Assembly: GCA_965233585.1 (NCBI GenBank)
Contig: CBDDTI010000745.1
Location: forward strand, 256,001-320,000
Direction: 5' to 3'
Source of the DNA: a bacterium
GTDB lineage: Bacteria > SAR324 > NAC60-12
DNA: 64,000 nt
The position numbers and the translations under genes were made by a program. The notes beneath the pieces were generated by a model that was not told where the DNA came from, searched no databases, and saw only the letters and a program-made list of their open reading frames with translations. Within the stretch, counting starts at the first letter, position 1; the number at the start of each line of letters is the position of its first letter. Positions 18,101 through 45,317 of this stretch are shown here, one piece after another.

Positions 18101-18928
18101 AGCACGCAAAGGTTGCCATTGAGAAATGGCAATGCTTTCAACACCAATAGTGAAGCAATTCATATTCCTGCCCAAAAAGATTGGACTCTTCTATCTTTGC
18201 CCATTCAACAAAATTTAAATCTTTTGCAACGAGAATTATTTCTTGCTCAATTTAGTGAATTGAAAGTCTATCAAAAAGGCAAATGGCTGATGGAGACCCC
18301 AAATGGTCGTGAGCATCACAACAACGTTGGAACACTTGCTAAAAATCAAGGTTTCTGGGCAAAACAAGACGAGGCAAGAGCTTTAAACTTATTAGGCACT
18401 GCCGCAGAGGAAGCAGAAATGTCTCTACCCCCTGAAAATTCAGGGTGGCATCTGCTTGGTGTGTCAAAAACCATGTCTCTTGATGAACTACAAGTTTTAT
18501 TAAGCTCTCAAGACGACCCCCAACCCACTTCACAAGCGCTGCCATCAAGTTTGCCTATGACAACAGCATTTGCTTTTGCTTTGGTGTTGCCCCTTGTCAG
18601 TATCAGGCATAAAAGGCAAAAATTGTTGTTAGGTCTAATCGTTCTTTTATTGGTGTCTTGCGCCCCTGAATCTAGTGTCCCTTCCTCCTCAGAACCAGCA
18701 GCAGAAAGTGAACAACCTGTCCAAAAGCAAGCTGGAGATGTTCCAACTTCAGTGATTTGGAAACAAAAAAACAACACTTGGCAAGTCTATTCTTCCCACG
18801 AAGAAACAATGAAAACTCTGCAAGACAAGGGTTTTGAGCAGATTGAAAAAGTTCATGCAGGAGAAGGTCTTTGGATCAACCAAACTTGGACTTCTCTTGC
18901 CACAACCACCCCTCCTCAAGTTCAATAA
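12137..18928 (+). CDS. Giant secreted mosaic protein (FG-GAP/VCBS-like motifs, beta-helical regions, PDZ domain, 3x126-aa repeats)
   Basis: Signal peptide ..ALA-Q; DFDGDGDQDL, DVDGDRDPD motifs; SGIGVAL...PGGAADK.G.L...D.IL.V PDZ; internal repeats. Confidence 0.85.
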   Translation: MKSQFIILCSALGLFLLPSLALAQVTTSVQDEPFGQVVEYKEGGSLQKIEVKTAIKTQAQFKLSLANTSTTSSKIFTLSSTSNWLQYDSVSRGKAFDRVTGRDSVDEKTITLPASSNTTTSFQTAKLIHTGNYVSYLQGLSSVLPLHLNLQECVTSQSGNLLDPATYDGGSICGKQQTSAKIASGHTVVWNSTPEASNVIHVQDGGILELAYTGTFQGQVVLEKGATLKITQDTTLSKFKMTGDATIQIADSRTVEIPHQIGIPFHQTLTVSGGRLKGERMVIYGTLTTDQTIIENQILVANGTIQTQKSSQILGAIQYADKALKEQPNHLLKDFTPIREDDRKMMYAIHDFDGDGDQDLFARDVNHGLIYYRNVGTLQKPKFERKQIPRGIYKLYDVGRSSWTYSIETLYENQIPKYIAIGAIGVRGIYENIGNATDWNLKLLDRTLVSSTPVYFMDVNGDHTYELVLNWLDLEVLSLKELKFLYDERYPFYYQAILDVDGDRDPDMFSIDNDQEVLTYHQNIRYDSRPIDAEKQKLYDSGDFLSRWQHSPEVFPSHAYKESIPFIRDLNDDQVPELYLLTKLNDPIQALEFFPYDKATIFSDSNESVLKLAESLTVPEYSKLEISGSNIVIQGDLNIHPKLTLQTSTHVQGNISLYKDFTAFKDLTIAGTTTINGSLKLDLRENFSTKNLAILEKFNPLNTPTMAIENSFGKDFKIEKQLTAKHVLLGITGGRVFLPEVIDLEDSALMIVPNSFHNSIKTLNLASGNVTLNVNIARLNSSGTAVVSNAQIDELVTRDNLRLRNATINNNFHLNDPNALLKLEGDNTWKGKFHLEKGTFEAVGTDTTFEAPVEIATTATFTQQYNRPTVKFQQSTTLSGVVNFETFDFPRDHSIFFEAPLTISGALKNTGNLRTSDTTLIQESGTLTNNGSANFQKSLILNGKLESYGPLYIGNIEFGKGQLFSDGVAVTFASQETLFQREPETIPKSGIGVALVQLPTGTFQIHSILPGGAADKHGFLKPQDSILQVSQDGITFESVVGWTMADLISKLTGPEDSTVWLEINRQTPSALVTHKINLVRKPVIQREVTARFEESGISTTKPSHTWKIGKHAKVEVEGGIMRKIAIPEIQGELSLKNVRWFARKDISIASGGILKNEGWGLSFDNLKLDGILESKQGDLDFRQLTLGEGVLRIEGGQTKFPIATSITFTGQHTFRNVDIQTRRTGSTSVWNIGKNTKLSIDGGSVKDIELGEIQSDFSWENAVINIQKTETTVHDKITFKNKGGDVRFKHFKLDGTFENTNGNVAFEKLTIGSTGHFQVTGGTMKFPIATSVTFTGQHTFRNVDIQTITAGSTSVWNIGKNTKLSIDGGSVKDIELGEIQSDFSWENAVINIQKTETTVHDKITFKNKGGDVRFKHFKLDGTFENTDGNVAFEKLTIGSTGSVQATGGTMKFPIATSVTFAGQHTFRNVDIQTITAGSTSVWNIGKNTKLSIDGGSVKDIELGEIQSDFSWENAVINIQKTETTVHDKITFKNKGGDVRFKHFKLDGTFENTDGNVAFERLTIGSTGSIQATGGTMKFPIATSVTFVAGTKARFVNVDLSSLVAGQKSVWFIDDKATVEIIGGSIQDIEIKTGLLSTKGTEDKGGNTNLITGGSGKKTVQTGNTKVSVPADEIKENPDKSVTFTKKTKEGKTETTLYSDGKVQIKKTTTRQGKQIETEVEAPPNSKTDTDEKSGITVTESQLVQLSRGRTSQTKTSLYPDGKVKHETIITSSTGQKTITETKVPEGVKVEIASSGYSAIAVSDFLDVADPKLQVEVTKIESLIGLEGRTQTLIYTQDQDDPTVIDAPLAVKTQIHPLATVQQYIPSQLVNQVSSNVYLSANRKGQLFSSYHTKDKDQKLLTAQAYPVFENGADVKASFHSGQGQLILVGQVANPFINEPNLLVGKDYATGDYVHLSERSADFELRIERNLLEPFNQMSVEQGTAFLVQSTQRLPLRNGNAFNTNSEAIHIPAQKDWTLLSLPIQQNLNLLQRELFLAQFSELKVYQKGKWLMETPNGREHHNNVGTLAKNQGFWAKQDEARALNLLGTAAEEAEMSLPPENSGWHLLGVSKTMSLDELQVLLSSQDDPQPTSQALPSSLPMTTAFAFALVLPLVSIRHKRQKLLLGLIVLLLVSCAPESSVPSSSEPAAESEQPVQKQAGDVPTSVIWKQKNNTWQVYSSHEETMKTLQDKGFEQIEKVHAGEGLWINQTWTSLATTTPPQVQ
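15734..16890 (+). repeat. Three near-identical 378-bp (126-aa) tandem repeats
   Basis: TTCCCCATCGC recurs at 15734, 16112, 16490, 16868. Confidence 0.95.
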
Positions 18929-29057: not shown

Positions 29058-29918
29058 GTGGTGAAAGATCCGATAAGGTCACAAGGGATTTTTATTTTTA
29101 AATTTGATTACCAAAAAAACATGCAACCTGTTTCTTACCTCAATTTGTACATCACTGTTGTCGTTGGCTTTGTCCTCTCTATGGCATTTGGCTCCTACTT
29201 CTTCTATCAAAATATGGACAATGCCAGTTTTTTACTCCTTTCAGGATTAGAGACGAATCGGATCTACATAGACCAGCATCAGTATAACTCTTACTTGCAG
29301 GGTTTTATTTACTGCATGACCTTTTTTGTAGCGGGAGTTTTATTGCTCATTGTCATGGCATTGCCAAGTAAGGAGGTCTTTGAACAACGTGCCATTCATT
29401 CAGGACGGCTTGCTCCAAGCATGACTTTGCAAACTCAAGAAGCACATGCTCCATCAGCTATTCCTGCAATAGATGCCTCACAAATGGGAACGTCTCAATC
29501 TACGCCCACAACTTCTGAAAGCTCTAATCCACAAGAAGTGGAAGACCCAAGTCAGGTGCAGCTAACCATTGAAGATGAGCCAGATATTGACCTATTTGAA
29601 GCAGAAGATGACAGCAAAGAAACGGCTGATGCTAATGTGGTGTATGGGTTAGGCAGAGTAACTGAAGATTCCACACTAGAGTTTATCCATGCCCACCCTG
29701 ACAGTGCTGTGAAGTTTCTTTACAGACGCAATTTGGAAGGCAAAAGCCTTTCAAGTGCCGAAGAGAAAATTTACGAATCATGGCAAAAAAGAGGACTCAC
29801 CCGTACAAGAGTTAGAGACTACATTCTTCAACTTATGGAATGGAAAAAACTCCCTGAAGTCTTGCCTCTGGAAATTTGGTCTCAATTACGCGACCAAATC
29901 TTTGAACTCACTCATTAA
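29058..29918 (+). CDS. Hypothetical membrane protein (2 TM plus acidic linker)
   Basis: Two hydrophobic segments, low-complexity linker, globular C-terminus; true start may be ATG 29121. Confidence 0.7.
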   Translation: MVKDPIRSQGIFIFKFDYQKNMQPVSYLNLYITVVVGFVLSMAFGSYFFYQNMDNASFLLLSGLETNRIYIDQHQYNSYLQGFIYCMTFFVAGVLLLIVMALPSKEVFEQRAIHSGRLAPSMTLQTQEAHAPSAIPAIDASQMGTSQSTPTTSESSNPQEVEDPSQVQLTIEDEPDIDLFEAEDDSKETADANVVYGLGRVTEDSTLEFIHAHPDSAVKFLYRRNLEGKSLSSAEEKIYESWQKRGLTRTRVRDYILQLMEWKKLPEVLPLEIWSQLRDQIFELTH

Positions 29919-30514
29919 TCTTGAAACTTTGGTGCATATAGTTCTAAAAAATTCTTCACAATTCTCATACCATCTGGAGTCAAAATAGATTCAGGGTGAA
30001 ACTGAAGACCAAAGGTTTTTGTGCCTTTCAAATGCACTGCCATGACTTCATCTTGTTCTGTATGGGCTAAAATTGTGAAGCAATCGCTTTCAGGAATCGC
30101 AATCAACGAATGATAACGCATGGCAGAAAAGGGTGAAGGGACATTTTGAAAAATGTGTTCTTGACTATGCCAAATTTGTGAAGTCTTTCCGTGCATGATC
30201 TGTCTTGCCTTTTCTACCTTGCCGCCAAATAACTCCACCAAACACTGATGTCCCAAACAAACGCCTAGTATTGGAATTTTTCTGTGAAAATATTGAAGTG
30301 CAGGAAGAGAAATTTTGGTTTCTTGGGGAGTGTTTGGACCGGGTGAAAGACAAAGATGTGTGGGTTGCAAAGCCACTAGCTCATCAAGAGAAGTTGCATC
30401 ATGGTCAAATATCAAGACCTCTGCACCTTGCATTCTAAACATTTGGACAAGGTTGTAGGTAAAAGAGTCATAGTGATCAATGACAATGACCTTTTTCAGG
30501 GCATGATGGCTCAT
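29915..30514 (-). CDS. Anthranilate / aminodeoxychorismate synthase component II (TrpG/PabA)
   Basis: IDHYDSFTYNL, LSPGP, LGVCLGHQ, MHGK.S, RYHSL, QFHPESI. Confidence 0.93.
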   Translation of the reverse strand: MSHHALKKVIVIDHYDSFTYNLVQMFRMQGAEVLIFDHDATSLDELVALQPTHLCLSPGPNTPQETKISLPALQYFHRKIPILGVCLGHQCLVELFGGKVEKARQIMHGKTSQIWHSQEHIFQNVPSPFSAMRYHSLIAIPESDCFTILAHTEQDEVMAVHLKGTKTFGLQFHPESILTPDGMRIVKNFLELYAPKFQD

Positions 30515-30626
30515 GTTGCATCTTCTTTCAGAACACATTTGACTAGAAGATCAGTCTCAAATTTCCAGTCTGCTGGGGTGATTTTGGGAGAATACAAAAA
30601 CAAAATGTCTCTAGCATAAAATTTTT

Positions 30627-31399
30627 GGCAGTGTTCACTTGGTATTGGCATGATATTTTTCAAACCTTTTATAGTCAAAGAAGAGTTGTAGAGAGTGTTC
30701 CAGCATGTCAAAAGTTTTAGAATGTCGTTTAGATTTTCTCATCAAGCGAGCTAGGTTATCTCTGATGGAAGAATTAGAAGATTCAATGAGATGAGTGTTG
30801 TCCTTGCCTATCTGATGCTTTTGTGGAATTTGGAGTTGTGCAAATGCCACTTGATAGCATGAGTTGGCATCTGTATAAATCGTTTCAATTCTAGCTCGTT
30901 GTGCTTTGACTAGTCCATACAGCTGCTTTGCTGCTGCTAATCCTTTGCCTATCACAAAGGCAATCACACATTGTTCTTGACGAGAGTATGCTGTCCAAAC
31001 AGCTACTCTTTGGCTTTTTTTTGAACAAAAGTGTAGATCTCATCCATCTCTATACTATCTACTTGTGCATGGAAACTTGGTGCGTCTTTTGGAAGTTGAG
31101 ACACTCTAGCTTTTTTGATCCAGTTGACAATTGAAGCGGGAGACACCTGCAAAAAACGAGCGATCTTTCTGATGCCTACACTATTGACATACATCTCTAA
31201 GGCTTGACGCTTGGTCTCTAGTGGGATTCTCAAACCATTTGAGGTGAATGCTCTCTGACATGACTTGCAACGATACCTCTGAACCCCTTTGTAACTTCCA
31301 TTCTTGATATAAGTCTGACTCCCACAATGATGACAACTTCTCATTTCCATTCCTCAAATTCACTCTCACATGCAATGACAATACCAACTAAACACTGCC
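30627..31399 (-). mobile_element. IS1-family element copy 1 (773 bp), apparently intact
   Basis: Terminal IRs GGCAGTGTTCACTTGGTATT / AATACCAACTAAACACTGCC; InsA zinc-ribbon+HTH ORF 31003-31350 and InsB DDE ORF 30635-30967 joined by A8 -1 frameshift site. Confidence 0.93.
30635..31350 (-). CDS. IS1-family transposase InsA-InsB (programmed -1 frameshift)
   Basis: CHHCGS..KNG....QRYRCKSC; EMDEIYTFVQKK then -1 frame KSQRVAVWTAY...YTDANSCY...THLIESSNSSIR. Confidence 0.88.
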
Positions 31400-31433
31400 T
31401 CCAATGGAGGGGAATTGAAACACTTTGCCTTTC

Positions 31434-31462
31434 GTCATTGCCACCTTGAGTGAGCAATCTCC
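31434..31462. repeat. GTCATT-type palindromic (REP-like) repeat
   Basis: GTCATTGCCACCTTGAGTGAGCAATCTCC, near copy of 32194-32222. Confidence 0.75.
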
Positions 31463-31511
31463 TCTTTTCAGATTTCTCTCTTTTTTTATTTTTCCATTTT
31501 GTCTTTAAATT

Positions 31512-31520
31512 TGTTATGAT
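31512..31520 (+). promoter_or_regulatory. Extended -10 promoter conserved upstream of all three DUF1640-like genes
   Basis: TGTTATGAT here and on minus strand at 33735-33743 and 38567-38575, inside a conserved TGTCTTT.AAT.TGTTATGATTCTGG block. Confidence 0.6.
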
Positions 31521-31550
31521 TCTGGTTTTGACATTCTCACTTATCGGCTG

Positions 31551-32186
31551 ATGGAAACCGCATTACTTTTTGACACACTCAAGACTTCCAAACACTTGCA
31601 AGCTGCAGGCTTTGAACAAGAGCAAGCAGAGGCATTGACAGAAGAATTTAAGTTTGTGGTAGAAAGCAACTTTGCGAAACTTTCTACCAAAGAGCAAGTT
31701 TCTGGTTTAGAGACAAGCCTTAATGAAAAACTGGAGCAAAAATCCACCAAAGACCAAGTCTCTGGTTTAGAGACAAGTCTTAATGAAAAACTGGAGCAAA
31801 AATCCACTAAAGAGCAAGTCTCTCACTTGCAAGAACAGCTTGAGCAAAAAGCCACTAAAGAACAGGTGTCTCACTTGCAAGAACAGCTTGAGCAGAAAGC
31901 CACTAAAGAGCAAGTCTCTAATTTAGAAACAAGCCTTAATGAAAAACTGGAGCAAAAATCCACCAAAGAAGACATTCAAAATGTCAGAGATGAAATCAAA
32001 GACGTCAAAGATGAACTGAAAGAAGACATTCAAAATGTCAGAGGTGAATTGAAAGAAGACATCTATTCTTTAAAAGGAGAGCAAAAACTCCTGAAATGGA
32101 TGGTGGGTTTTGGCATTTCTTTAAATCTGGTGACGCTTGGAGTCGTATTAGCTTTTTTGTTTTCTTTTCTTCCTCCTGCCAAGTAA
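31551..32186 (+). CDS. DUF1640/CCDC90-like membrane-anchored coiled-coil protein, paralog A (211 aa)
   Basis: FDTLK..K.L.AAGFEQEQAEAL head; (S/A)TKEQV stalk repeats; C-terminal LLKWMVGF TM anchor. Confidence 0.85.
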   Translation: METALLFDTLKTSKHLQAAGFEQEQAEALTEEFKFVVESNFAKLSTKEQVSGLETSLNEKLEQKSTKDQVSGLETSLNEKLEQKSTKEQVSHLQEQLEQKATKEQVSHLQEQLEQKATKEQVSNLETSLNEKLEQKSTKEDIQNVRDEIKDVKDELKEDIQNVRGELKEDIYSLKGEQKLLKWMVGFGISLNLVTLGVVLAFLFSFLPPAK

Positions 32187-32193
32187 AAACCCT

Positions 32194-32262
32194 GTCATTG
32201 CTCACCTTGAGTGAGCAATCTCATTCTTCTTGGTTGAGATTCCGTGTCAAGTGCGGAATGAC
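32194..32262. repeat. Pair of GTCATT-type palindromes
   Basis: GTCATTGCTCACCTTGAGTGAGCAATCTC and GAGATTCCGTGTCAAGTGCGGAATGAC. Confidence 0.8.
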
Positions 32263-32313
32263 AAAGGGAGTTTGCAGGCTTGTTTTTTCGTCTTCTTATT
32301 CCCCTTCAGTGAA

Positions 32314-33085
32314 GGAAGTGTTTACTTGATATTGTTGTGATATTTTTCAAATCTTTTGTAGTCAAAGAAGAGTTTGAGAGAGTGATGGAGCATGTGAAAA
32401 GTTTTAGAATGTCGTTTAGATTTTCTCATGAAGCGAGCTAAGTGATCTCTGATAGAAGAGTTTGAAGATTCAATGAGATGAGTCTTGTCTTTGCCTATTT
32501 CATGCTTCTCTGGAATTTGAAGTTGTGCAAATGCCACTTGATAGCAAGAATTCGCATCGGTGTAAATCGTCTCTATCCTAGGTCGCTGTTCTTTGACGAG
32601 TGCATACAGCTTCTTGGCAGCTTCTAATCCTTTGCCTATCACAAAAGCAATCACGCATTGTTCTTGACGAGAATAAGCTGTCCAAACCGCTACTCTTTGG
32701 CTTTTTTTGAACAAAAGTGTAGATTTCGTCCATCTCTATACTATCTACTTGCTCACGGAAACTGGGTGCGTCTTTTGGGAGTTGAGATACTCTGGCTTTT
32801 TTGATCCAGTTGAGAACTGAAGCTGGAGGCACCTTGAGAAAACGAGCTATTTTTCTGATGCCTACGTTATTGACATACATTTCTAAGGCTTGACGCTTCG
32901 TCTCTAGTGGGATTCTCAACCCATTTGAAGTGAATGCTCTCTGACATGACTTGCAACGAGACCTTTGAACTCCTTTGTAACTTCCATTCTTCGTATAAGT
33001 CTGACTCCCACAATGATGACAACTTCTCATATTCATTCCTCAAATTCGCTCTCACATGCAATGACAATACCAACTAAACACTGCC
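32314..33085 (-). mobile_element. IS1-family element copy 2 (772 bp), probably inactive
   Basis: IRs GGAAGTGTTTACTTGATATT / AATACCAACTAAACACTGCC; frameshift run is A7 not A8, so a -1 shift meets TAG. Confidence 0.9.
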
Positions 33086-33147
33086 CTTGGCAAAGGGAAA
33101 AAAAGAATCAGAAAGTCAGAAAAAGGGAAGATTGAGAAAAAAGAAGA

Positions 33148-33241
33148 GAGATTGCGGGTCAAGGTAAGCAATGACAGGGGAATAAAGAAAATGCGAAGGT
33201 TGCCAACTTCATTAGTCATTCCGTGCTTGACACGGAATCTC
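33148..33241. repeat. Two GTCATT-type palindromes
   Basis: GAGATTGCGGGTCAAGGTAAGCAATGAC (33148-33175); GTCATTCCGTGCTTGACACGGAATCTC (33215-33241). Confidence 0.8.
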
Positions 33242-33284
33242 AAAAAACAAAAATCGTTTATCAAAGTGATCAATAACAGGGATT

Positions 33285-33704
33285 TTATTTGGCAGGAGGA
33301 AGAAAAGAAAACAAAAAGGCTAGCACGACTCCAAGTGTCACCAGATTTAAAGAGATGCCAAAACCCACCATCCATTTCAGGAGTTTTTGCTCTCCTTTCA
33401 AAGAATAGATGTCTTCTTTGAGTTCATCTTTGACGTCTTTGAGTTCATCTCTGACGTTTTGAATGTCATCTTTGAGTTCATCTCTGACATTTTGAATGTC
33501 ATCTTTACTGGCTTTTTGCTCCAGTTTTTCATTAAGATTTGTCTCTAAACTAGAAATCTGTTCTTTAGTAGAAAGTTTTGCAAAATTGCTTTCTACAACA
33601 GATTTAAATTCTTCGGTCAATGCTTCTGCTTGCTCTTGTTCAAAGCCTGCGGCTTGCAAGTGTTTAGAAGTCTTGAGTGTGTCAAAAAGCAAAGCGGTTT
33701 CCAT
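33285..33704 (-). CDS. DUF1640/CCDC90-like protein, paralog B (139 aa)
   Basis: Same head and TM anchor as 31551-32186, short stalk. Confidence 0.85.
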   Translation of the reverse strand: METALLFDTLKTSKHLQAAGFEQEQAEALTEEFKSVVESNFAKLSTKEQISSLETNLNEKLEQKASKDDIQNVRDELKDDIQNVRDELKDVKDELKEDIYSLKGEQKLLKWMVGFGISLNLVTLGVVLAFLFSFLPPAK

Positions 33705-33792
33705 CAGTCTATGATTGAGAATGCCAAATCCAGAATCATAACAGATTCAAAGACAAAATAGAAAAAGAAAAAGGGAAGAAAGAGAAAAGAGT

Positions 33793-33870
33793 GAGATGCG
33801 GGTCAAGCCCGCAATGATGGGAACCTTCTTGATTGTCTTCCTGCTGTTGAACAGAAAGACAAAAGAAGGT
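33793..33870 (-). terminator. Long hairpin plus REP-like palindrome downstream of the lipoprotein gene
   Basis: ACCTTCTT..TGTCTTCCTG / CAGAAAGACA..AAGAAGGT inverted repeat (33823-33870); GAGATGCGGGTCAAGCCCGCAATGAT (33793-33818). Confidence 0.55.
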
Positions 33871-33903
33871 CGTAAAAAGAGGTTAAAAACGAAGGGTCAA
33901 CGA

Positions 33904-36900
33904 CTACTGTGTTTTTGAGCCATAATACCACTCACGACCCAGACCATTGGAACCTGTGAAGTAAAGTTTTCCATCAACCCAGTATGGATTGGCAGTGTTC
34001 CAAGTTCCACCAGTGTTGACATTGACAAACTTATTCTTTGGCTTACCTTTCCAACCAACCAAGACTTTGACAGCACCTGATTCGGTTGTCACAGCAATCG
34101 CATCGGCAGTTCCCACTTTGATTTTCATGAGTCCTTGAACAGATTCCACACCAAGTTTTCTAGTAGAAGCAGAGGCTCTTACAGCAGTTCCATTGTCTCC
34201 ATCTACCCAATACAAAGCACCACCAGCAAGAGTGTAGTAATCATTACCAGATTTGACTGCTTTGTTGCCTTCTGCATCTAAATCCCATCCAACATGAACT
34301 TTGCTGCCATTAGCGGCAGTTTTAACAACTCGTTTGGTGGTCTCTGTTGTACCTTTAGTCAACCAAACTCCACCACCATCATGTGTGAAGAATAACACAT
34401 CTCCTGCAACAGCAAGGTTGGTTGGTGTGATTGATGCTTTGTCAACTGCTGCAAGATTACCATCTTTGGCAGCCTCTACCTCAATTTCTTTTCCAACGGG
34501 AGTGGCCGCAGAAGACACTGAGTACAGCTTGTCTGCTTTCACTGCAATCAACTGATTCCCTAGTGCATGAATGGCAGTGATGCTAGCAAGGTCAGCTGGA
34601 GTGTCTGCAGAATCTTTGACCTCCTCAAAGCCATCTGCAAAGCTTTTCACATACTTCACATTTCCACCATCAAGACCAAAAAGTTTGTTGTTCACCACAG
34701 TCAAGCTGGTCAAGTCTGCTTTTGCTGAACCAGCAACCATAGAAGTTGCAACAATTTCAACCTTTCCTGCACTATCGGTTGTAGAAAGAGTGGCATCAAA
34801 GGTGTAGGTTTGTTCTGAATTAGAGAAGTAAACATTGTTACCGCTCACAGTCAGAGACTTGACGTCCAAGTCTGCAACAGAACCTGCACTGTTTGAAGTG
34901 GCAATTTCTGTAACGCCTGCTCTGTCAAGCGCCCCGTGAACATACAACTTCTTGTCATAGCTGAAATACAAGTCATCTGAATGCACGGCATACTTGCCTG
35001 CTTCTATGGCAAATGAGTTGTTGTTTTCTACTGCAGGAGCGGCATCATCAGCATCGGCAGCACCTTCTGCAATGGCTAATTTGCTGTATTTTCCAGAATC
35101 ATCAGCCATATAAATTTTGTCATCAACTACTATGTAATCCGTATTGGCAGCATTCAATGAAGCATTACTTGTCAAAGTTCCAAAAACACTTTTGACAGCT
35201 CCTGCTTGGTCTATCCAATAGAGTTGGTCTGTATCTGCTGCGTCATAGAAATAAATACCATCTTTTGCTGCAACAAACTTTGTTGTTGTTGAAGCAGATG
35301 CTGCCAAGCCTGTCACTTCAGCAAAGTCATCAACTGTTGTTCCATCTGCCCAGAAAACTCCGTCTAACCATGTTGCACTTGCTTTGTTAACAGTGACAAT
35401 CAAGGTGTTACTTCCATCTGGAACTACCCCAATGATTTCACCAGCTACAGCACCTTTTAGGTCAATAGCAGATGTGTTTTCTAATTCAACAGTAGTACCG
35501 TCAGCTGATTTAACAAAGACAGCTTGGCTGGCACCATTTGCACCATCAATGACAAAAGCACCATCTTTTGCAACAAAAAGTTTTGTTGTTGCAGTGGCAA
35601 TAGCAGTATTTCCTCCATCTTGAGCAAAGTCAGCAGCTGTTGTTCCATCTGCCCAGTAAACTTTGTTTAACCATGTTGCATTTGCTTTGTTAACAGTGAC
35701 AATCAAGGTGTTACTTCCATCTGGAACTACCCCAATGATTTCAGCAGCTACAGCACCTTTTAGGTCAATAGCAGATGTGTTTTCTAATTCAACAGTAGTA
35801 CCGTCAGCTGATTTAACAAAGACAGCTTGGCTGGCACCATTTGCACCATCAATGACAAAAGCACCATCTTTTGCAGCAAAAAGTTTTGTTGTTGCAGTGG
35901 CAATAGCAGTATTTCCTCCATCTTGAGCAAAGTCAGTAGCTGTTGTTCCATCTGCCCAGTAAACTTTGTTTAACCATGTTGCCCCCGTTTTATTAACAGT
36001 GACAATCAAGGTGTTACTTCCATCTGGAACTACCCCAATGATTTCAGCAGCTACAGCACCTTTTAGGTCAATAGCAGATGTGTCTTCTAATTCAACAGTA
36101 GTACCGTCAGCTGATTTAACAAAGACAGCTTGGCTGGCACCATTTGCACCATCAATGACAAAAGCACCATCTTTTGCAGCAAAAAGTTTTGTTGTTGCAG
36201 TGGCAATAGCAGTACTTCCTCCATCTTGAGCAAAGTCAGCAGTTTTTGTTCCATCTGCCCAGTAAACTTTGTCTAACCATGTCGCCCCCGTTTCGTTGAC
36301 AGTCACAAACAGTGTGTTTTCCGCAACTGCTCCGATAAAGTCGCCTTCTACTGCTGCTGTTGTTCCAAAGCTTAAACCAGTTGCTTCTAAATCATTGACT
36401 GTGCCATCTTTGTTAAGAAAAACAACGGTGCCATTATCAGCTCCTGCAGCAGACTTAATCACAAAGAGACCGTCTTTAGCAGCGTAAGTGATAGTTGGTG
36501 TTGCAAGTGTTAAATCGTATTTCCTTGCAATTCCATCTTTAAGATAGAACCAATCTTCTCCTGAGTTGATGATGACATCACCATCAGTCGTTTTGTAGAA
36601 AGCGGTGATGGCTTCAGTGATTTCAGGGTGGAGTTGTGCCAGTTCTGTGACGTCAGCGCCTTTGACTTTGGCAACATTGCGTGCTGTGACATCCTTATTG
36701 TAGTTGAAGAACAAGCTGTCTGCTCCTGTGACTACTTTAGTAGGGGATGTGCTAGCATTATCACCGCTATCTGGCTTAGTACCGTTGAAATTTTCAGTGA
36801 AGTTATATTCAAAGGCATAGTCGCAGATGTATTGGACTTTGCTAGTGTCAATCTCTGTTCCGGCATCGTTGTAAACGCCTGTGATTTTGACACCACCAAA

Positions 36901-37161
36901 GCCGTTGCAGTTGGCATCAGCAAGCGTGGTGCCTGGGTTGAAGGCAGTGCGTGTCTGCCCGTTTAGAACAGATGGGTCGTCATCATCATCGTCATCGTTG
37001 TTGTTATCATTGCCACCGTCATCGTTTCCTCCGGGAGTATTGGCAGCAGGGGTATCGCTGCTGCTACTGCTTGAGGAGTCGCTGTCGTTGGCACAAGCTG
37101 TTGCGAAAGCAATCAGCGCAAGGGGAGCATACTTTTTCAAATGTTTAAGTAAACGCATCAT
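33904..37161 (-). CDS. Large surface lipoprotein (1085 aa) with 101-aa tandem repeats, probable beta-propeller (ELWxxDGT-like)
   Basis: Signal ..LALIAFATA-C; Ser/Asp/Asn linker; VYWADGT / VWLTKGT / GREWYY motifs; Ala/Thr/Gly/Asp rich. Confidence 0.85.
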   Translation of the reverse strand: MMRLLKHLKKYAPLALIAFATACANDSDSSSSSSSDTPAANTPGGNDDGGNDNNNDDDDDDDPSVLNGQTRTAFNPGTTLADANCNGFGGVKITGVYNDAGTEIDTSKVQYICDYAFEYNFTENFNGTKPDSGDNASTSPTKVVTGADSLFFNYNKDVTARNVAKVKGADVTELAQLHPEITEAITAFYKTTDGDVIINSGEDWFYLKDGIARKYDLTLATPTITYAAKDGLFVIKSAAGADNGTVVFLNKDGTVNDLEATGLSFGTTAAVEGDFIGAVAENTLFVTVNETGATWLDKVYWADGTKTADFAQDGGSTAIATATTKLFAAKDGAFVIDGANGASQAVFVKSADGTTVELEDTSAIDLKGAVAAEIIGVVPDGSNTLIVTVNKTGATWLNKVYWADGTTATDFAQDGGNTAIATATTKLFAAKDGAFVIDGANGASQAVFVKSADGTTVELENTSAIDLKGAVAAEIIGVVPDGSNTLIVTVNKANATWLNKVYWADGTTAADFAQDGGNTAIATATTKLFVAKDGAFVIDGANGASQAVFVKSADGTTVELENTSAIDLKGAVAGEIIGVVPDGSNTLIVTVNKASATWLDGVFWADGTTVDDFAEVTGLAASASTTTKFVAAKDGIYFYDAADTDQLYWIDQAGAVKSVFGTLTSNASLNAANTDYIVVDDKIYMADDSGKYSKLAIAEGAADADDAAPAVENNNSFAIEAGKYAVHSDDLYFSYDKKLYVHGALDRAGVTEIATSNSAGSVADLDVKSLTVSGNNVYFSNSEQTYTFDATLSTTDSAGKVEIVATSMVAGSAKADLTSLTVVNNKLFGLDGGNVKYVKSFADGFEEVKDSADTPADLASITAIHALGNQLIAVKADKLYSVSSAATPVGKEIEVEAAKDGNLAAVDKASITPTNLAVAGDVLFFTHDGGGVWLTKGTTETTKRVVKTAANGSKVHVGWDLDAEGNKAVKSGNDYYTLAGGALYWVDGDNGTAVRASASTRKLGVESVQGLMKIKVGTADAIAVTTESGAVKVLVGWKGKPKNKFVNVNTGGTWNTANPYWVDGKLYFTGSNGLGREWYYGSKTQ
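35342..36290. repeat. Three near-identical 303-bp (101-aa) tandem repeats
   Basis: CCATCTGCCCAG at 35342, 35645, 35948, 36251. Confidence 0.95.
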
Positions 37162-37234
37162 AATAGATTACCTTTCTCAAAATAGGTTAGGTTAATGGCA
37201 GCCCAAAAAATCCCAATGATTCTTTGAGCGGGGT

Positions 37235-37337
37235 CTATCTCAGAGGCGGTCTTGATTTGAACCAAAAGACTAAAATGAGGATAAAAATCTTCCGAGCATG
37301 ATGATCTGTTTCATGTCAAATCAAGACGCTGAGATAG
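37235..37337 (-). promoter_or_regulatory. Structured 5' UTR of lipoprotein gene
   Basis: CTATCTCAG/CTGAGATAG and GTCTTGATTTGA/TCAAATCAAGAC perfect complementary pairs enclosing 55 nt. Confidence 0.7.
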
Positions 37338-37348
37338 GTAAGCGTGTT

Positions 37349-37376
37349 ATTTTACTTTGACAAAAAAAAAAGGCAA
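37349..37376 (-). promoter_or_regulatory. Putative sigma70 promoter with T10 tract overlapping the spacer
   Basis: Minus strand TTGCCT-16 nt (T9GTCAAAG)-TAAAAT. Confidence 0.6.
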
Positions 37377-37538
37377 GCCCCGAATGAAAAAAAATTGAAT
37401 GAAACAGGTCAAAAATGTGTGTTGAGTGTGGATTTTTTGCTGGTTGAAGAGTTGGGAGGCAAGCAAACATAAGGCGTGCAGCGACATCAGGAAAAAACGA
37501 AAAAAGTTTTTAAAAAAGTGAAAAAAGTTTTTTTGAAA

Positions 37539-37579
37539 CACCCCGTCCCTTTGGGACACCCCTCTTGTCAAAGGGGAAT
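37539..37579. repeat. Intact double-hairpin element CACCCCG..CACCCCT-N-AGGGGAAT
   Basis: CACCCCGTCCCTTTGGGACACCCCTCTTGTCAAAGGGGAAT; halves of related elements abut the IS ends. Confidence 0.7.
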
Positions 37580-37595
37580 GAAACAGCCGTCAATA

Positions 37596-37737
37596 GAGAT
37601 TGCGGGTCAAGTCCGCAATGACGGTTTTTAAAGTGAGACATGACGAAAGGGCAAGTCTGCCAACGTCATCAGTCATTCCGCACTTGATGCGGAATCTAAA
37701 AAAACAAGATGAGATTGCGGGTCAAGCCCGCAATGAC
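37596..37737. repeat. Cluster of three GTCATT-type palindromes
   Basis: 37596-37622, 37672-37697 and 37711-37737 (GAGATTGCGGGTCAAGCCCGCAATGAC). Confidence 0.85.
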
Positions 37738-37781
37738 GGAGGAAGAGGAGAGGAATTTTGAGTTCCTTCAAGATAGAAAAT

Positions 37782-38537
37782 TTATTTGGAGGCGGGAAGA
37801 AAAGCAAACAAAAAGGCTAACATGACCCCAAGTGTAATCAGATTTAAAGAAATGCCAAAACTGACCATCCATGACAACAATTTAAATTTGCTGTCAATTT
37901 TCTCACTGAGATTGGCTTCCAGATAAAGAACCTGCTCTTTGGTGGCTTTTTGCTCAAGTTTCTCTTCTAAGCTAGCGACTTGTTCTTTGGTGGCTTTCTG
38001 CTCAAGCTGTTCTTGCAAGTGAGACATTTTTTCGTTGAGATTCTTCTCCAAACTAGCGACTTGTTCTTTGGTGGCTTTCTGCTCAAGCTGTTCCTCCAAG
38101 TGAGATATTTTTTCGTTGAGATTTTTCTCCAAACTAGAAACTTGTTCTTTAGAGGCTTTCTGTTCCAGTTTCTCCTCTAAACTAGAGATTTTCCCATTAA
38201 GGTTTGTCTCTAAAGCAGAAACTTGGTCTTTAGTGGCTTTCTGCTCAAGCTGTTCTTGCAAATGAACAGACTGTTCTTTAGTGGCTTTTTGCTCCAGTTT
38301 TTGATTAAGGTTTGTCTCTAAACTAGAAACTTGTTCTTTAGTGGCTTTTTGCTCCAGTTTTTGATTAAGGTTTGTCTCTAAACTAGAAACTTGGTCTTTG
38401 GTAGAAAGTTTTGCAAAGTTGCTTTCTACAACAGACTTAAATTCTTCGGTCAATGCCTCTGCTTGTTCTTGCTCAAAACCTGCAGCTTGCAAATGTTTAG
38501 AAGTTTTGAGTGTGTCAAAAAGTAAAGCGGTTTCCAT
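37782..38537 (-). CDS. DUF1640/CCDC90-like protein, paralog C (251 aa)
   Basis: Same head; longest ATKEQV stalk; TM anchor. Confidence 0.85.
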   Translation of the reverse strand: METALLFDTLKTSKHLQAAGFEQEQAEALTEEFKSVVESNFAKLSTKDQVSSLETNLNQKLEQKATKEQVSSLETNLNQKLEQKATKEQSVHLQEQLEQKATKDQVSALETNLNGKISSLEEKLEQKASKEQVSSLEKNLNEKISHLEEQLEQKATKEQVASLEKNLNEKMSHLQEQLEQKATKEQVASLEEKLEQKATKEQVLYLEANLSEKIDSKFKLLSWMVSFGISLNLITLGVMLAFLFAFLPASK

Positions 38538-38647
38538 TGGTCTATGCGTGGGAGGTTAAAACCAGAATCATAACAAATTTAAAGACAGAATGGAAAGAGA
38601 AAAGGCGTGACTACCCCGCTTGCTTGCGCAAGCACCGCTTCATTGAA

Positions 38648-39420
38648 GGCAGTGTTCACTTGTTGTTGTTATTGCATGTGAGAGTAAATTTGAGGAATGA
38701 ATATGAGAAGTTGTCATCATTGTGGAAGTCAGAATGACATCAAGAATGGAAGTTGCAAAGGAGTGCAGAGATAGTCTTGCAAATCATGTGGGAGGTCGTT
38801 CAGTTCAAATGGTTTGAGAATCCCACTAGAGAACAAGCGTCAAGCCTTAGAGATGTATGTCAATAGTGTAGGCATCAGAAAGATAGCTCGTTTTGTGCAG
38901 GTGTCTCCAACTTCAGTTCTCAACTGGATCAAAAAAGCCAGAGTGTCTCAACTCCCAAAAGACGCACCAAATTTCCAAGAGCAAGTAGATAGTATAGAGA
39001 TGGATGAGATCTATACTTTTGTTCAAAAAAAAGTCAAAGAGTAGCCGTCTGGACAGCAGACTCTCGTAGGGAGCAATGTGTGATGGCCTTTGTGATAGGC
39101 AAAGGATTGGCAGCTGCGCGAAAGTTGTATGCACTAGTCAAAGAACAGCGACCTAGAATGAAGACGATCTATACCGATGCCAACTCATGCTATCAAGTCA
39201 CATTTGCTCAATTACAAATTCCAGAGAACCACGAAATAGGCAAGAGAAATACTCATCTCATGGAATCTTCTCATTCTTCCATCAGAGATCACCTAGCTCG
39301 TTTTATGAGAAAATCTAAACGACATTCTAAAACTTGGGACATGCTGGAACTCTCTCTCAAACTTTTCTTTGACTATAAAAGACTTGAAAAATATCATGCC
39401 AACACCAAGTGAACACTGCC
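38648..39420 (+). mobile_element. IS1-family element copy 3 (773 bp), transposase pseudogene
   Basis: IRs GGCAGTGTTCACTTG / CAAGTGAACACTGCC; in-frame TAG in InsA near 38772; InsB ORF 39080-39412. Confidence 0.9.
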
Positions 39421-39518
39421 AAATTTTTTGGGTATAAAATCACTTGCTCATTTTTCATAAGTATCATAATCTTGCCTCTTGTTGTGAGTCAGTCAATTCA
39501 CAACCGATTGTCCTTTGA

Positions 39519-40889
<1,371 letters not shown>

Positions 40890-43724: not shown

Positions 43725-45317
43725 CTAAAAATCAAATATTGAAGGATATACAAAGTTAAAAGTCACAATCAAATACTTTTCTTCAAAGTCTTCAGGCAAA
43801 TCTGATAAATCTGCCGCACCAATCACAGCATCTAATACAGAATTGACCATCAAAGTACTGACATCATAGTTTAACACCTCATAACTGATTAAGTCCCCAT
43901 GTTGGTCCAGTGTGACGCTGACTTGGACAGTTCCACCTTGTGGCACTTGTCCCGAAATATAATCAGTGGGCGGAGAGTTTTCCCAGTGTGCAATCAAGAT
44001 TTTTGCCCAGTATCCCATGTAAGATTCATACTGCCAATTATAGTTATTAAGCTGGTAAAAGTTCCGATTGTTTGTCTCCCAAGCTCCATTTTGGATTCCG
44101 TCTTGTGGAGGTTGAATGCTAATTTTAGGGGTTGAATTTGCTGGTTGTTCAGAAAATAAATAATTTTCAGCTAACGGTGCAAGTAGATTTTGTTGTTGAC
44201 CTTTTCCCTCGGTTGTGGGTTCATCTGCTATTTGGGGTAATTCATTAGTCTGGTTTGTTTTTTCTTCTTGTTGCTGTAAAGGTTCTTTGATTTCAGCCTG
44301 TTGTGCAGTGCTTGGTAAATCATTTGGAGAAACCTTTTGGCGAATAGTCTGGTTTGTGTTTTCTTCTTGTTGCTGTAAAGGTTCTTTGATTTCAGACTGT
44401 TGTGCAGTGCTTGGTAAATCATTCGGAGAAACCTTTTGGCGAATAGTCTGGTTTGTGTTTTCTTCTTGTTGCTGTAAAGGTTCTTTGATTTCAGACTGTT
44501 GTGCAGTGCTTGGTAAATCATTCGGAGAAACCTTTTGGCGAATAGTCTGGTTTGTGTTTTCTTCTTGTTGCTGTAAAGGTTCTTTGATTTCAGACTGTTG
44601 TGCAGTGCTTGGTAAATCATTTTTTGTCTCAGTTGGTTGTTCTAAAGGCTTCGCTTGGTTTTGGATTTCTGGTTTTTGTTGTAAAGATAATTCTTTAGCT
44701 TTGACAGTATTGCTTCTTCTTTGTTGAGGAGGGGAAAGGATTTTTTCTTTTTGAGGTTTTTGTATAGGTTTGACTGATTGTTTTGGGGCTGGTTCTGGAA
44801 TCAGGCGGGGTGCCGCTTCTGCTGCCTTGAGGTTTTTGATACTCAGCTTTTTCTTTTCATCTTCTGGAATCAAACGATTTAACAGAACCTCGTCTTCTTT
44901 AATGGGCTTGACTTCTTTGAGTGGTGGAGGAGGAACTTCTTTAGGAGGTGTCTCTTTTTTCTCTGGAGGAACTTCTCTAGGGGTGTTGTCTTTTGGAGTT
45001 AAGGATTTTGGAATAGTCTGTTTAAGAGTATTGTCTTTTGGAGTTAAAGGTTTTGGGGCAGTCTGTGGAGGAGGGACTTCTTTCTTTTTTTGGGGTGTAG
45101 GATTGATTGTTTCAGGAGGTATGACAGATGTTTCAGAAAAATCAATCAAGATGGTGTCGTCAGGAGTAGAAGAACGAGTCTGGCTTAACCATGAATTGAA
45201 TTGTGAAAATAAGAGCAAATGAATGATGAGAGCAAAGAGAAAAGCACTAGCTTGGAAGTGATGGGATTTAATCAGGTGAATCAAATGCCCTTGGGGCATA
45301 GAAGTAACCATTTTCAA
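43725..45317 (-). CDS. TonB/TolA-like protein: TM, Pro/Lys/Gln-rich linker with repeats, C-terminal domain
   Basis: ALIIHLLL TM with His; PK/PP-rich linker; C-terminal Y...W.PP..G.V.V.VTLD..G.L...LP..F....L.V.F.F.Y; true start may be ATG 45299. Confidence 0.75.
   Translation of the reverse strand: MKMVTSMPQGHLIHLIKSHHFQASAFLFALIIHLLLFSQFNSWLSQTRSSTPDDTILIDFSETSVIPPETINPTPQKKKEVPPPQTAPKPLTPKDNTLKQTIPKSLTPKDNTPREVPPEKKETPPKEVPPPPLKEVKPIKEDEVLLNRLIPEDEKKKLSIKNLKAAEAAPRLIPEPAPKQSVKPIQKPQKEKILSPPQQRRSNTVKAKELSLQQKPEIQNQAKPLEQPTETKNDLPSTAQQSEIKEPLQQQEENTNQTIRQKVSPNDLPSTAQQSEIKEPLQQQEENTNQTIRQKVSPNDLPSTAQQSEIKEPLQQQEENTNQTIRQKVSPNDLPSTAQQAEIKEPLQQQEEKTNQTNELPQIADEPTTEGKGQQQNLLAPLAENYLFSEQPANSTPKISIQPPQDGIQNGAWETNNRNFYQLNNYNWQYESYMGYWAKILIAHWENSPPTDYISGQVPQGGTVQVSVTLDQHGDLISYEVLNYDVSTLMVNSVLDAVIGAADLSDLPEDFEEKYLIVTFNFVYPSIFDF
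44246..44621. repeat. About 3.8 copies of a 99-bp (33-aa) tandem repeat
   Basis: TAGTCTGGTTTG at 44246, 44345, 44444, 44543; NDLPSTAQQSEIKEPLQQQEENTNQTIRQKVSP. Confidence 0.95.

Follow-up and report, generated by a model that had tools for sequence, protein, structure and literature searches.

An IS1-bounded unit carrying a lipoprotein gene and a predicted poly-T promoter switch in a SAR324 bacterium

An 8.8-kb unit between trpG and eno

The window analysed here, a 64,000-nucleotide stretch of a SAR324 assembly (C745:256001-320000), contains an 8.8-kb unit (30619-39428) which is probably an IS1 composite transposon carrying one member of a genome-wide repertoire of predicted poly-T promoter switches, the DUF1640 genes enclosed with it being passengers gathered by the hairpin preference of the insertion sequence (IS). 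The four cargo open reading frames (ORFs), three IS copies, 303-bp units, T10 tract and eight palindromes that an initial annotation had listed for the unit were all present at the positions it gave, and the limits of the unit coincide with two copies of one 8-bp direct repeat. Each of these parts is genuine, yet together they do not form a single machine.

The parent assembly (~12 Mb) is of mixed composition. Seven contigs (2.99 Mb) shared one tetranucleotide profile (r ≥0.96; next contig 0.88) and exhibited a long-ORF cover of 79-89%, against 15-74% on the 40 largest other contigs, and all genome-wide counts given below are restricted to these seven, which represent a ~3-Mb bacterium. The 740 small contigs (9.0 Mb), with their different composition and low coding density, are foreign DNA binned with it. 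No congener of the source bacterium was present among the genomes compared. Contigs assembled from short reads confirmed both outer junctions of the unit and covered most of the lipoprotein gene without differences; as these runs may be from the source sample, they serve as a check on the assembly rather than as independent biology.

A family of predicted poly-T promoters upstream of lipoprotein genes

The lipoprotein gene of the unit (33904-37161, minus strand, 1085 aa) is preceded by a predicted sigma-70 promoter (37349-37376, minus strand) in which a 16-bp spacer containing a T10 tract (37362-37371) separates TTGCCT from TAAAAT. The scan that located this site is weak by itself (2 sites against 0.9 expected). 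A search with the family pattern TTG-(0-3 nt)-Tn-G...[C/T]A.A[A/G]T returned 24 matches, two of which were dropped as being without the family context and a downstream ORF, and thereby identified 22 promoters sharing a single design (TTG–T8-12–G…CATAAT/TAAAAT) on contigs C745, C746 and C747. Of the 26 runs of T10 or longer, 17 conformed to this design, compared with 1 of 2329 T7 runs and 16 of 6908 T6 runs. A second, independent pattern recovered 21 exact sites in the genome and none in 87 other genomes, the promoter of the unit being a diverged 22nd. All but one of the 22 precede lipoprotein-family genes (13 passing a lipobox filter, the other 8 being BLAST paralogs of these), and at least two unrelated lipoprotein families are served.

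The spacing between the predicted −35 and −10 boxes was 16 bp at 13 of the 22 sites and 12-15 bp at the other nine. A spacer of 16 bp was reached by way of T12, T11 or T10, offset by the bases after TTG, and near-identical members of the family differed only in tract length (T8-T12). Ordinary promoters of the genome peaked at a spacer of 17 bp (24 sites, with 15 at 16 bp and 14 at 18 bp), and a tract-less paralog of the gene (C746:634295) likewise has a 17-bp spacer. The unit thus has the layout of a contingency locus, a homopolymer between the (predicted) −35 and −10 boxes of a surface-type gene, which in PMC2268961, citing Citti and Wise 1995, is described as switching vlp, maa2 and vmm. When the tract was read in one sample, runs X1 and X2 gave T10 and run X3 gave T11, the sole difference in 486 bp. 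The initial annotation had named the promoter homopolymer as a possible source of variation, which the promoter family and the T10/T11 difference between runs support as a likely switch; a lack of read-level heterogeneity, which it held would refute its model, was not what the runs gave at the T tract.

Taken together, the layout and its parallels suggest that the T tract is a probable slipped-strand switch of lipoprotein transcription. Gain or loss of one T would shift the spacer from 16 bp (T10) to 17 bp (T11) or below, and about 21 lipoprotein genes would switch independently of one another. Several points weigh against this interpretation. The T11 reading in X3 stems from one contig with a depth of 4.8, under the tool's error-warning threshold of 5; the readings come from X1-X3, the site being uncovered in X4 and X5; and the promoter, its start and the tract length at which it is active are all predictions. 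No site in the assembly reaches a spacer of 17 bp, so that 16 bp may itself be the working state, and the 22 promoters are largely homologous copies rather than independent cases.

These same points lend themselves to a different account, in which the tract is a constant feature of the promoter (DNA bending, UP-like) inherited by duplication, and its length differences represent decay or error: the promoters are homologous, the majority share one spacing, the T11 observation is single and of low depth, and homopolymers are error-prone in sequencing. That account is nevertheless distinctly unlikely, given that near-identical promoters differ just by tract length, with bases after TTG offsetting the tract to keep 16 bp, that so many of the longest T runs of the genome occupy this one position before surface-type genes, and that the layout has been shown to switch the Mycoplasma genes mentioned above (PMC2268961).

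The lipoprotein

The lipoprotein possesses a lipobox cysteine (Cys23) after a hydrophobic stretch, invariant in 5/5 paralogs as judged by our own pattern filter rather than by SignalP, followed by a Ser/Asp/Asn tether, a DUF7151-like module (assigned by paralog alignment), 101-aa repeats and a predicted C-terminal beta-propeller. It is one of five paralogs, with BLAST identities of 27-31% for the three longer matches. The initial annotation had held that a lack of conserved synteny in relatives would refute its model; no relative shares the layout, the lipoprotein family being found in none of 87 other genomes of the class, and a single full-length outside homolog (P0005, locus L025) was recovered among 1.84 billion representatives, with no T run of eight or more in its 160 upstream bases.

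A profile built from the five paralogs matched the DUF7151 (PF23657) module N-terminally together with ELWxxDGT-type (TIGR04534) repeats. Against the TIGR04534 cut-off of 65 the lipoprotein of the unit itself gave no match, and paralog P0004 (18.6 bits) and P0005 (16.2 bits) fell below it. The last 371 residues were modelled as a beta-propeller (predicted local distance difference test, pLDDT, 70.5; best Z 14.9, root-mean-square deviation 4.6, 301 aligned), from an alignment made up largely of ELWxxDGT-type rows (14 of 20), which therefore leans towards a propeller. On this model the C-terminal domain would be distantly like the ELWxxDGT propellers, a likeness only. A full-length fold was set aside (mean pLDDT 47), its Foldseek matches being mostly propeller proteins at a template modelling score of ~0.1, and the best score in the ESM Atlas (0.82) was taken as a lead only. 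The putative surface-exposed protein may have a role in binding or shielding, as its tethered-propeller build would allow.

The gene contains three near-identical in-frame 303-bp units (35314-36222) followed by a degenerate fourth (35314-36525 overall, minus strand). The three differ from one another at 9-17 positions, compared with an internal identity of 71-84% in the paralogs, a low divergence pointing to recent origin or homogenisation. Over the repeat the contigs were 2-2.7 times as deep as over the unique part of the gene, which fits about three copies. These units might permit a slower change of size alongside any switching at the promoter. That this is a "major" lipoprotein, as initially supposed, was left unconfirmed by a codon test that proved uninformative, EF-Tu itself falling at the 31st percentile.

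The IS1-family element, its target and the probable mobility of the unit

The unit is bounded by two inverted copies of one element, IS-A (30627-31399, minus strand, 773 bp), with intact insA (31350-31003), an A8 frameshift tract (31015-31022) and insB, and IS-C (38648-39420, plus strand), with an early stop codon in insA and intact terminal repeats; a third copy, IS-B (32314-33085, minus strand), lies inside, its frameshift tract being A7 instead of A8. Membership of the IS1 family, with a zinc finger and HTH in InsA and a DDE domain in InsB, was evident from NF050000 (44.9 bits; cut-off 28) and PF03400 (27 bits; cut-off 24.1), and NF033558 matched both halves of the element (97.8 and 37.6 bits; IS-A E 7e-28). 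The element is of 773 bp with GGCAGTGTT terminal ends, 24 of 27 full copies retain the A8 tract, and the 8-9-bp target duplication typical of the family is present at 7 of the 27. The genome holds 35 BLAST segments, including these 27 full copies, 12 of them at ≥98.5% identity to IS-A; pairwise identities among IS-A, IS-B and IS-C were 691/773, 677/773 and 658/773. A search for the IS DNA in 87 other genomes gave one weak match. Two further loci on C747 deserve record: one copy (C747:177264-178037) has an A9 tract that fuses insA and insB in frame (236 aa), and is possibly a source of constitutive transposase or a homopolymer error; a tandem pair, 8 bp apart (C747:372692-374240), lies 3' of a lipoprotein paralog.

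The preferred target of this element is a CCCC-N9-GGGG hairpin. A G run occupied outward positions 9-14 at 42 of 62 IS ends (32 of 51 distinct flanks), compared with 1.1% of random sites, and the inner flank of IS-A (31400-31412, plus strand) is half of such a target (TCCAATGGA followed by GGGG). Escherichia coli IS1 favours AT-rich DNA, and the hairpin preference observed here is unusual for the family.

Immediately outside the outer ends lie the two copies of AAATTTTT (30619-30626 and 39421-39428, both plus strand), a probable target-site duplication. Among the 62 IS ends this sequence pairs only the left of IS-A with the right of IS-C, in direct orientation, and its frequency is 2.0e-4 per position. 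Cargo is thus enclosed between two IS copies whose outer ends carry a target duplication; as inverted IS1-family ends and an 8-bp direct repeat bound it, the unit is likely an IS1 composite transposon that arrived by IS1 transposition, and the mobility proposed initially is borne out to that extent.

The proposed history would begin with IS1 insertion, of the kind observed, into CCCC-N9-GGGG hairpins within the palindrome clusters (described below) that lie beside lipoprotein and DUF1640 genes. Insertions and recombination at IS-B would then have joined a module of IS-A and one DUF1640 gene to a module consisting of a DUF1640 gene, the lipoprotein gene, a further DUF1640 gene and IS-C. The outer ends of IS-A and IS-C would thereafter have transposed once into AAATTTTT between trpG and eno, with transposase supplied by an intact copy such as IS-A.

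Other observations count against such a history. AAATTTTT departs from the preferred target of the element, the outer ends of IS-A and IS-C being among the 20 ends outside the G-run preference. No empty trpG-eno site occurred among the short-read joints listed (contigs drop rare forms), and no second genomic location of the unit was found; the lipoprotein gene is single-copy, so that repeated mobility is unsupported. A search of 44 relatives for the empty site located trpG in three, on a different contig from eno. On C746 (298049-366368), two IS copies in the same orientation (at 298049 and 365596) have left flanks, and right flanks, that are each inverted 9-bp partners, and this 67-kb segment, as read from its flanks, is rearranged exactly at the IS ends and is not a simple composite; the existence of target copies at like ends means that a two-step rearrangement could yield the end state seen in the unit.

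Accordingly, it has to be considered that the unit never moved whole, and that independent IS1 insertions or rearrangements at a REP-rich site were followed by the creation of the 8-bp repeat through an inversion or deletion plus a second inversion, or by chance. Only 7 of 27 full copies keep their own 8-9-bp target duplication, a sign that flanks have been widely shuffled; IS-A and IS-C are only 88% identical, IS-C is defective, neither flank of IS-B has a target-duplication partner, whether in its opposite flank or at another IS end, and the C746 case provides a precedent. We regard this history as rather unlikely: a direct AAATTTTT repeat with inverted IS copies is what a single composite jump would produce, its chance occurrence having a probability of ~2e-4, and the two-step route needs an extra event with both outer ends still used in one reaction.

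The initial annotation had also reported an apparently flipped segment between the inverted IS copies, which the flank test failed to support. An invertible switch, in which recombination between these copies flips the internal segment and alters expression, might be read from the presence of ~790-bp inverted repeats and from a joint (31412 to 38633, opposite strands) in three runs. It is scarcely credible, in that the inner IS ends show no inverted target pair, the copies are 85-89% identical, the opposite-strand joint matches a sister locus (C745:334510) at 79 of 84 bases, and each cargo gene would keep its promoter on inversion. Inversion between the IS copies was set aside on these grounds, the flanks being a misfit and the sister locus accounting for the joint, within what contigs too short to bridge the repeats can show.

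Retention of the composite transposon as the preferred explanation is in keeping with another DUF1640 unit bounded by IS copies, at C295:355-2896, which has a 9-bp duplication and lacks a lipoprotein gene. The 25-bp inner flank of IS-A (from 31400) also follows the IS copy that precedes the DUF1640 gene on C295.

REP-like palindromes

All eight palindromes resembling repetitive extragenic palindromic (REP) sequences in the window lie inside the unit: one at 31434-31460 (plus strand); a pair at 32194-32262 (32194-32221, plus; 32237-32262, minus; fold z −4.4); a pair at 33149-33240 (33149-33175, minus; 33215-33240, plus); and three (37597-37622, 37672-37697 and 37712-37737) which, with C/G-run hairpins at 37541-37579, make up the interval 37541-37737 (fold z −4.0 and −5.9). 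The initial remark that such palindromes were not seen elsewhere in the window accordingly held, but they are not unique in the genome, where the pattern GTC-ATT-N5-CTTGA-N5-AAT-CT occurred in 395 copies forming 135 clusters, as compared with a single copy in the remaining 9 Mb of the assembly. At least eight REPs (maximum 20) fell within 147 of 2934 overlapping 8.8-kb windows, and 97 of the 135 loci held two or more units. The stem is of 8 bp, the loop of 5 nt, and C or T precedes GTC in 302 of 395 copies. The tail is CT(C/A) rather than the CCA of the CGTC type and clustering is common (up to 17), and in view of both mismatches the elements are termed CGTC-like rather than members of the CGTC-tagged REPs.

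A REP was located within 400 bp of 20 of the 35 DUF1640 genes, compared with 75 of 959 control ORFs, and REPs adjoin all five lipoprotein paralogs. IS ends lay within 300 bp of a REP in 28 of 62 cases, against 3.2% at random; the hits were mostly in C/G-run hairpins beside REPs, few IS ends directly abutting a REP. As REP clusters flank both lipoprotein and DUF1640 genes, they bring IS1 to both gene types, and the accumulation of genes and REPs in the unit follows from the preference of IS1 for the CCCC-N9-GGGG hairpins lying in such clusters. A search of the genome for a dedicated REP enzyme by its GIY-YIG motif gave no match. A RAYT/TnpA-like gene is present at C747:112027-112707, away from the REPs studied.

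DUF1640/CCDC90-like genes

The unit contains three of the 35 DUF1640 genes found in ~3 Mb, encoding proteins of 211 aa (31551-32186, plus strand; six beta-layer motifs, no signal peptide), 139 aa (33285-33704, minus strand) and 251 aa (37782-38537, minus strand; eight beta-layer motifs); eight of the 35 lie within 1.2 kb of IS1. PF07798 was the top family for all three unit proteins, at 17.6-28 bits compared with a cut-off of 33.5, and likewise ranked first, at E ≤0.01, in all 15 members aligned. The architecture of the family is present, with a head, a beta-layer neck ([aliphatic]-A-T-K-[polar]-[DE]), a coiled-coil stalk and a C-terminal membrane anchor; 17 of the 35 proteins share a near-identical head and themselves span 95-270 aa. 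Structural matches were obtained for the stalk with 6H9L (E 3.5e-4) and Tcar0761, and for the head with CCDC90B 6H9M (E 2.5e-3), 6H9L and 6H9M each having three chains per entry. Spacings between beta-layer motifs were 20, 20, 16, 16 and 20 residues in the 211-aa protein and 20, 20, 16, 27, 27, 27 and 16 in the 251-aa protein, and all 57 spacings were of 16, 20 or 27 residues (heptads plus 2 or 6). PMC4786415 gives this heptad-plus-2-or-6 rule for alpha/beta coiled coils, with homotrimers as the solved examples, and a stalk of variable length from beta-layer units as a property of the fold. By analogy, the proteins are predicted to be tail-anchored trimers, and they may act as inner-membrane scaffolds in which a constant head is held at different distances.

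The unit proteins have no N-terminal hydrophobic stretch, lysines before the anchor and a 4-residue tail; for these reasons the stalks probably face the cytoplasm, across the membrane from the lipoprotein, and the yeast homologs are matrix-facing (PMC7519068). This bears on whether stalks and lipoprotein belong together, as the initial annotation had proposed in the form of a co-selected envelope module, trimeric stalks of varied length acting with the lipoprotein, for example as spacers or props. All four cargo genes are indeed membrane-linked and enclosed by a single pair of IS ends, the lipoprotein gene is followed on its own strand, after 200 bp, by the 139-aa gene, and the expansion is real, with 0-2 weak DUF1640 matches in 44 relatives, and so probably useful to the organism. 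Such a module is very unlikely all the same. Only one of five lipoprotein paralogs and one of 22 poly-T promoters has a DUF1640 gene nearby, the nearest being 406 bp from the promoter of the unit and at least 18.4 kb from the other 21; a sister IS1/REP cluster (C745:329045-335282) comprises four DUF1640 genes and three IS copies with no lipoprotein gene; the three unit genes lie in two orientations and share an upstream motif of their own, which for the 139-aa gene is promoter-like and homopolymer-free; and the two kinds of protein are predicted to occupy opposite membrane faces (PMC7519068). With 35 DUF1640 genes and 395 REPs spread over the genome, a scatter that the initial annotation had named as refuting its model, the partnership found no support, and the three genes are likely passengers unrelated to lipoprotein function. 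That the membrane topology is a prediction from sequence counts against this passenger interpretation.

A predicted leader RNA complementary to a paralog

The predicted 5' leader of the lipoprotein gene (37162-37343, minus strand, its start point taken from the −10 box) folded, as a 185-nt sequence, at −52 kcal/mol (z −3.9), none of 200 shuffles being as stable. Its apical loop (37269-37284, minus strand), with an unpaired probability of 0.67-1.0 across 13 bases, is complementary over 16 nt, without mismatch, to positions −19 to −4 of its closest paralog, C746:634295 (C746:634276-634291; L011:2277-2292), which include the ribosome-binding site. This was the longest complement among 1870 long ORFs (next 13), and a 22-nt seed, chosen after the match had been seen, paired at −23.1 kcal/mol, compared with −16.5 for the next ORF. 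Matches of at least 16 to some ORF start were, however, given by 31 of 250 random leaders, so that length alone is modest evidence; the unlikely part is that the target is one of four paralogs, that its ribosome-binding site is covered, and that the proteins are only 31% identical. For the other 21 poly-T leaders, a lipoprotein paralog was the best match in 0 of 21.

We offer tentatively, as a possibility that could well prove wrong, a sequence in which gain of a T would cause the lipoprotein to be transcribed, its leader loop would silence the C746:634295 paralog by pairing with the ribosome-binding site and start region, and one large propeller protein would be swapped for the other, the switch travelling on the IS1 composite. 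If true, repression by the leader loop would give the cell an uncomplicated RNA means of expressing surface proteins in mutual exclusion, of which a literature search of thin coverage gave no case. The complement may instead be a captured inverted fragment without use. The same TAACTAAAATG stretch is also found upstream of the start of the outside homolog at L025, and the leader of the tract-less paralog itself (L011:2098-2270) contains a tandem pair of ~110-nt units with predicted hairpins.

Neighbouring features

The unit is flanked on the left by a trpG/pabA-type glutamine amidotransferase gene (29915-30538, minus strand) and on the right by an enolase gene (39546-40889, plus strand). Rfam gave no match above the gathering score in window positions 30000-40000. 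Elsewhere in the window, positions 12137-18928, which include tandem repeats of 378 bp at 15731-16893, encode a protein of 2263 aa with a stretch resembling PDZ/tail-specific proteases. The product of positions 43725-45317, which include tandem repeats of 99 bp at 44147-44621, is a proline-rich protein of 530 aa that looks TonB/TolA-like by eye and gave no NCBIfam match.

Comparison with known systems

The IS1 composite transposons Tn9 and Tn1681 consist of two IS1 copies with an 8-bp outer duplication, the copies being inverted in Tn1681. The unit resembles them in having two IS1-family elements, one copy defective, an 8-bp outer duplication and, as in Tn1681, inverted copies; it differs in that its IS copies are only 88% identical, a third IS lies inside, the cargo consists of envelope genes and the element prefers CCCC-N9-GGGG.

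REP-targeting IS elements are known (IS1397, ISKpn1, IS621, ISPpu9 and ISRm22), the survey covering families IS3, IS110, IS4, IS256 and IS5, with IS1 at 6/101 in Shigella (PMC1525189). The present element is like those in that source in inserting at a palindrome axis and, as with ISRm22, in having duplications unmatched via recombination between copies, and unlike them in being of the IS1 family and in entering mostly C/G-run hairpins beside REPs. The palindromes share with the CGTC-tagged REPs (PMC3733652) the GTC tag, an 8-bp stem opening AT, a 5-nt loop, intergenic pairs and the lack of an adjacent transposase, and differ in the tail (CCA there, CT(C/A) here) and in clusters, which are rare there and common here.

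The lipoprotein is similar to the ELWxxDGT (TIGR04534)/DUF7151 (PF23657) surface proteins in module types and C-terminal propeller, while matching neither model directly. The stalk proteins share with known DUF1640/CCDC90-like proteins (PF07798; MCUR1, CCDC90B, PDB 6H9L and 6H9M; PMC4786415) an FDT-L..L...GF...QAE head, [A/S]TK[E/D] motifs, a coiled-coil stalk and a C-terminal anchor. By contrast with those, there are here 35 copies in ~3 Mb, the unit proteins fall below the Pfam cut-off, and some have been moved by IS1.

A member of the IS1 family that strictly targets hairpins accounts for the copying and movement of REP-flanked variable genes, and serves as a warning that gene clusters gathered by REPs and IS1 need not be functional modules. 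The genome also offers 22 predicted one-base promoter switches, for which a literature search gave no such report for the lineage.

The closest parallel for these promoters is the vlp system of Mycoplasma hyorhinis, which has a poly-A tract together with internal tandem repeats that could vary size; the lipoprotein of the unit also has internal repeats. With vlp, and with M. arthritidis maa2 and M. mycoides vmm, the present system shares a lipoprotein gene family and a homopolymer between −35 and −10 (PMC2268961). It differs from vlp in having a poly-T tract and 22 dispersed promoters, which serve lipoproteins, mostly of 500-1700 aa, from at least two unrelated families, and in being found in an uncultured bacterium of Gram-negative type that is not a known pathogen, in which switching is predicted and one member of the repertoire lies in an IS1-bounded unit.

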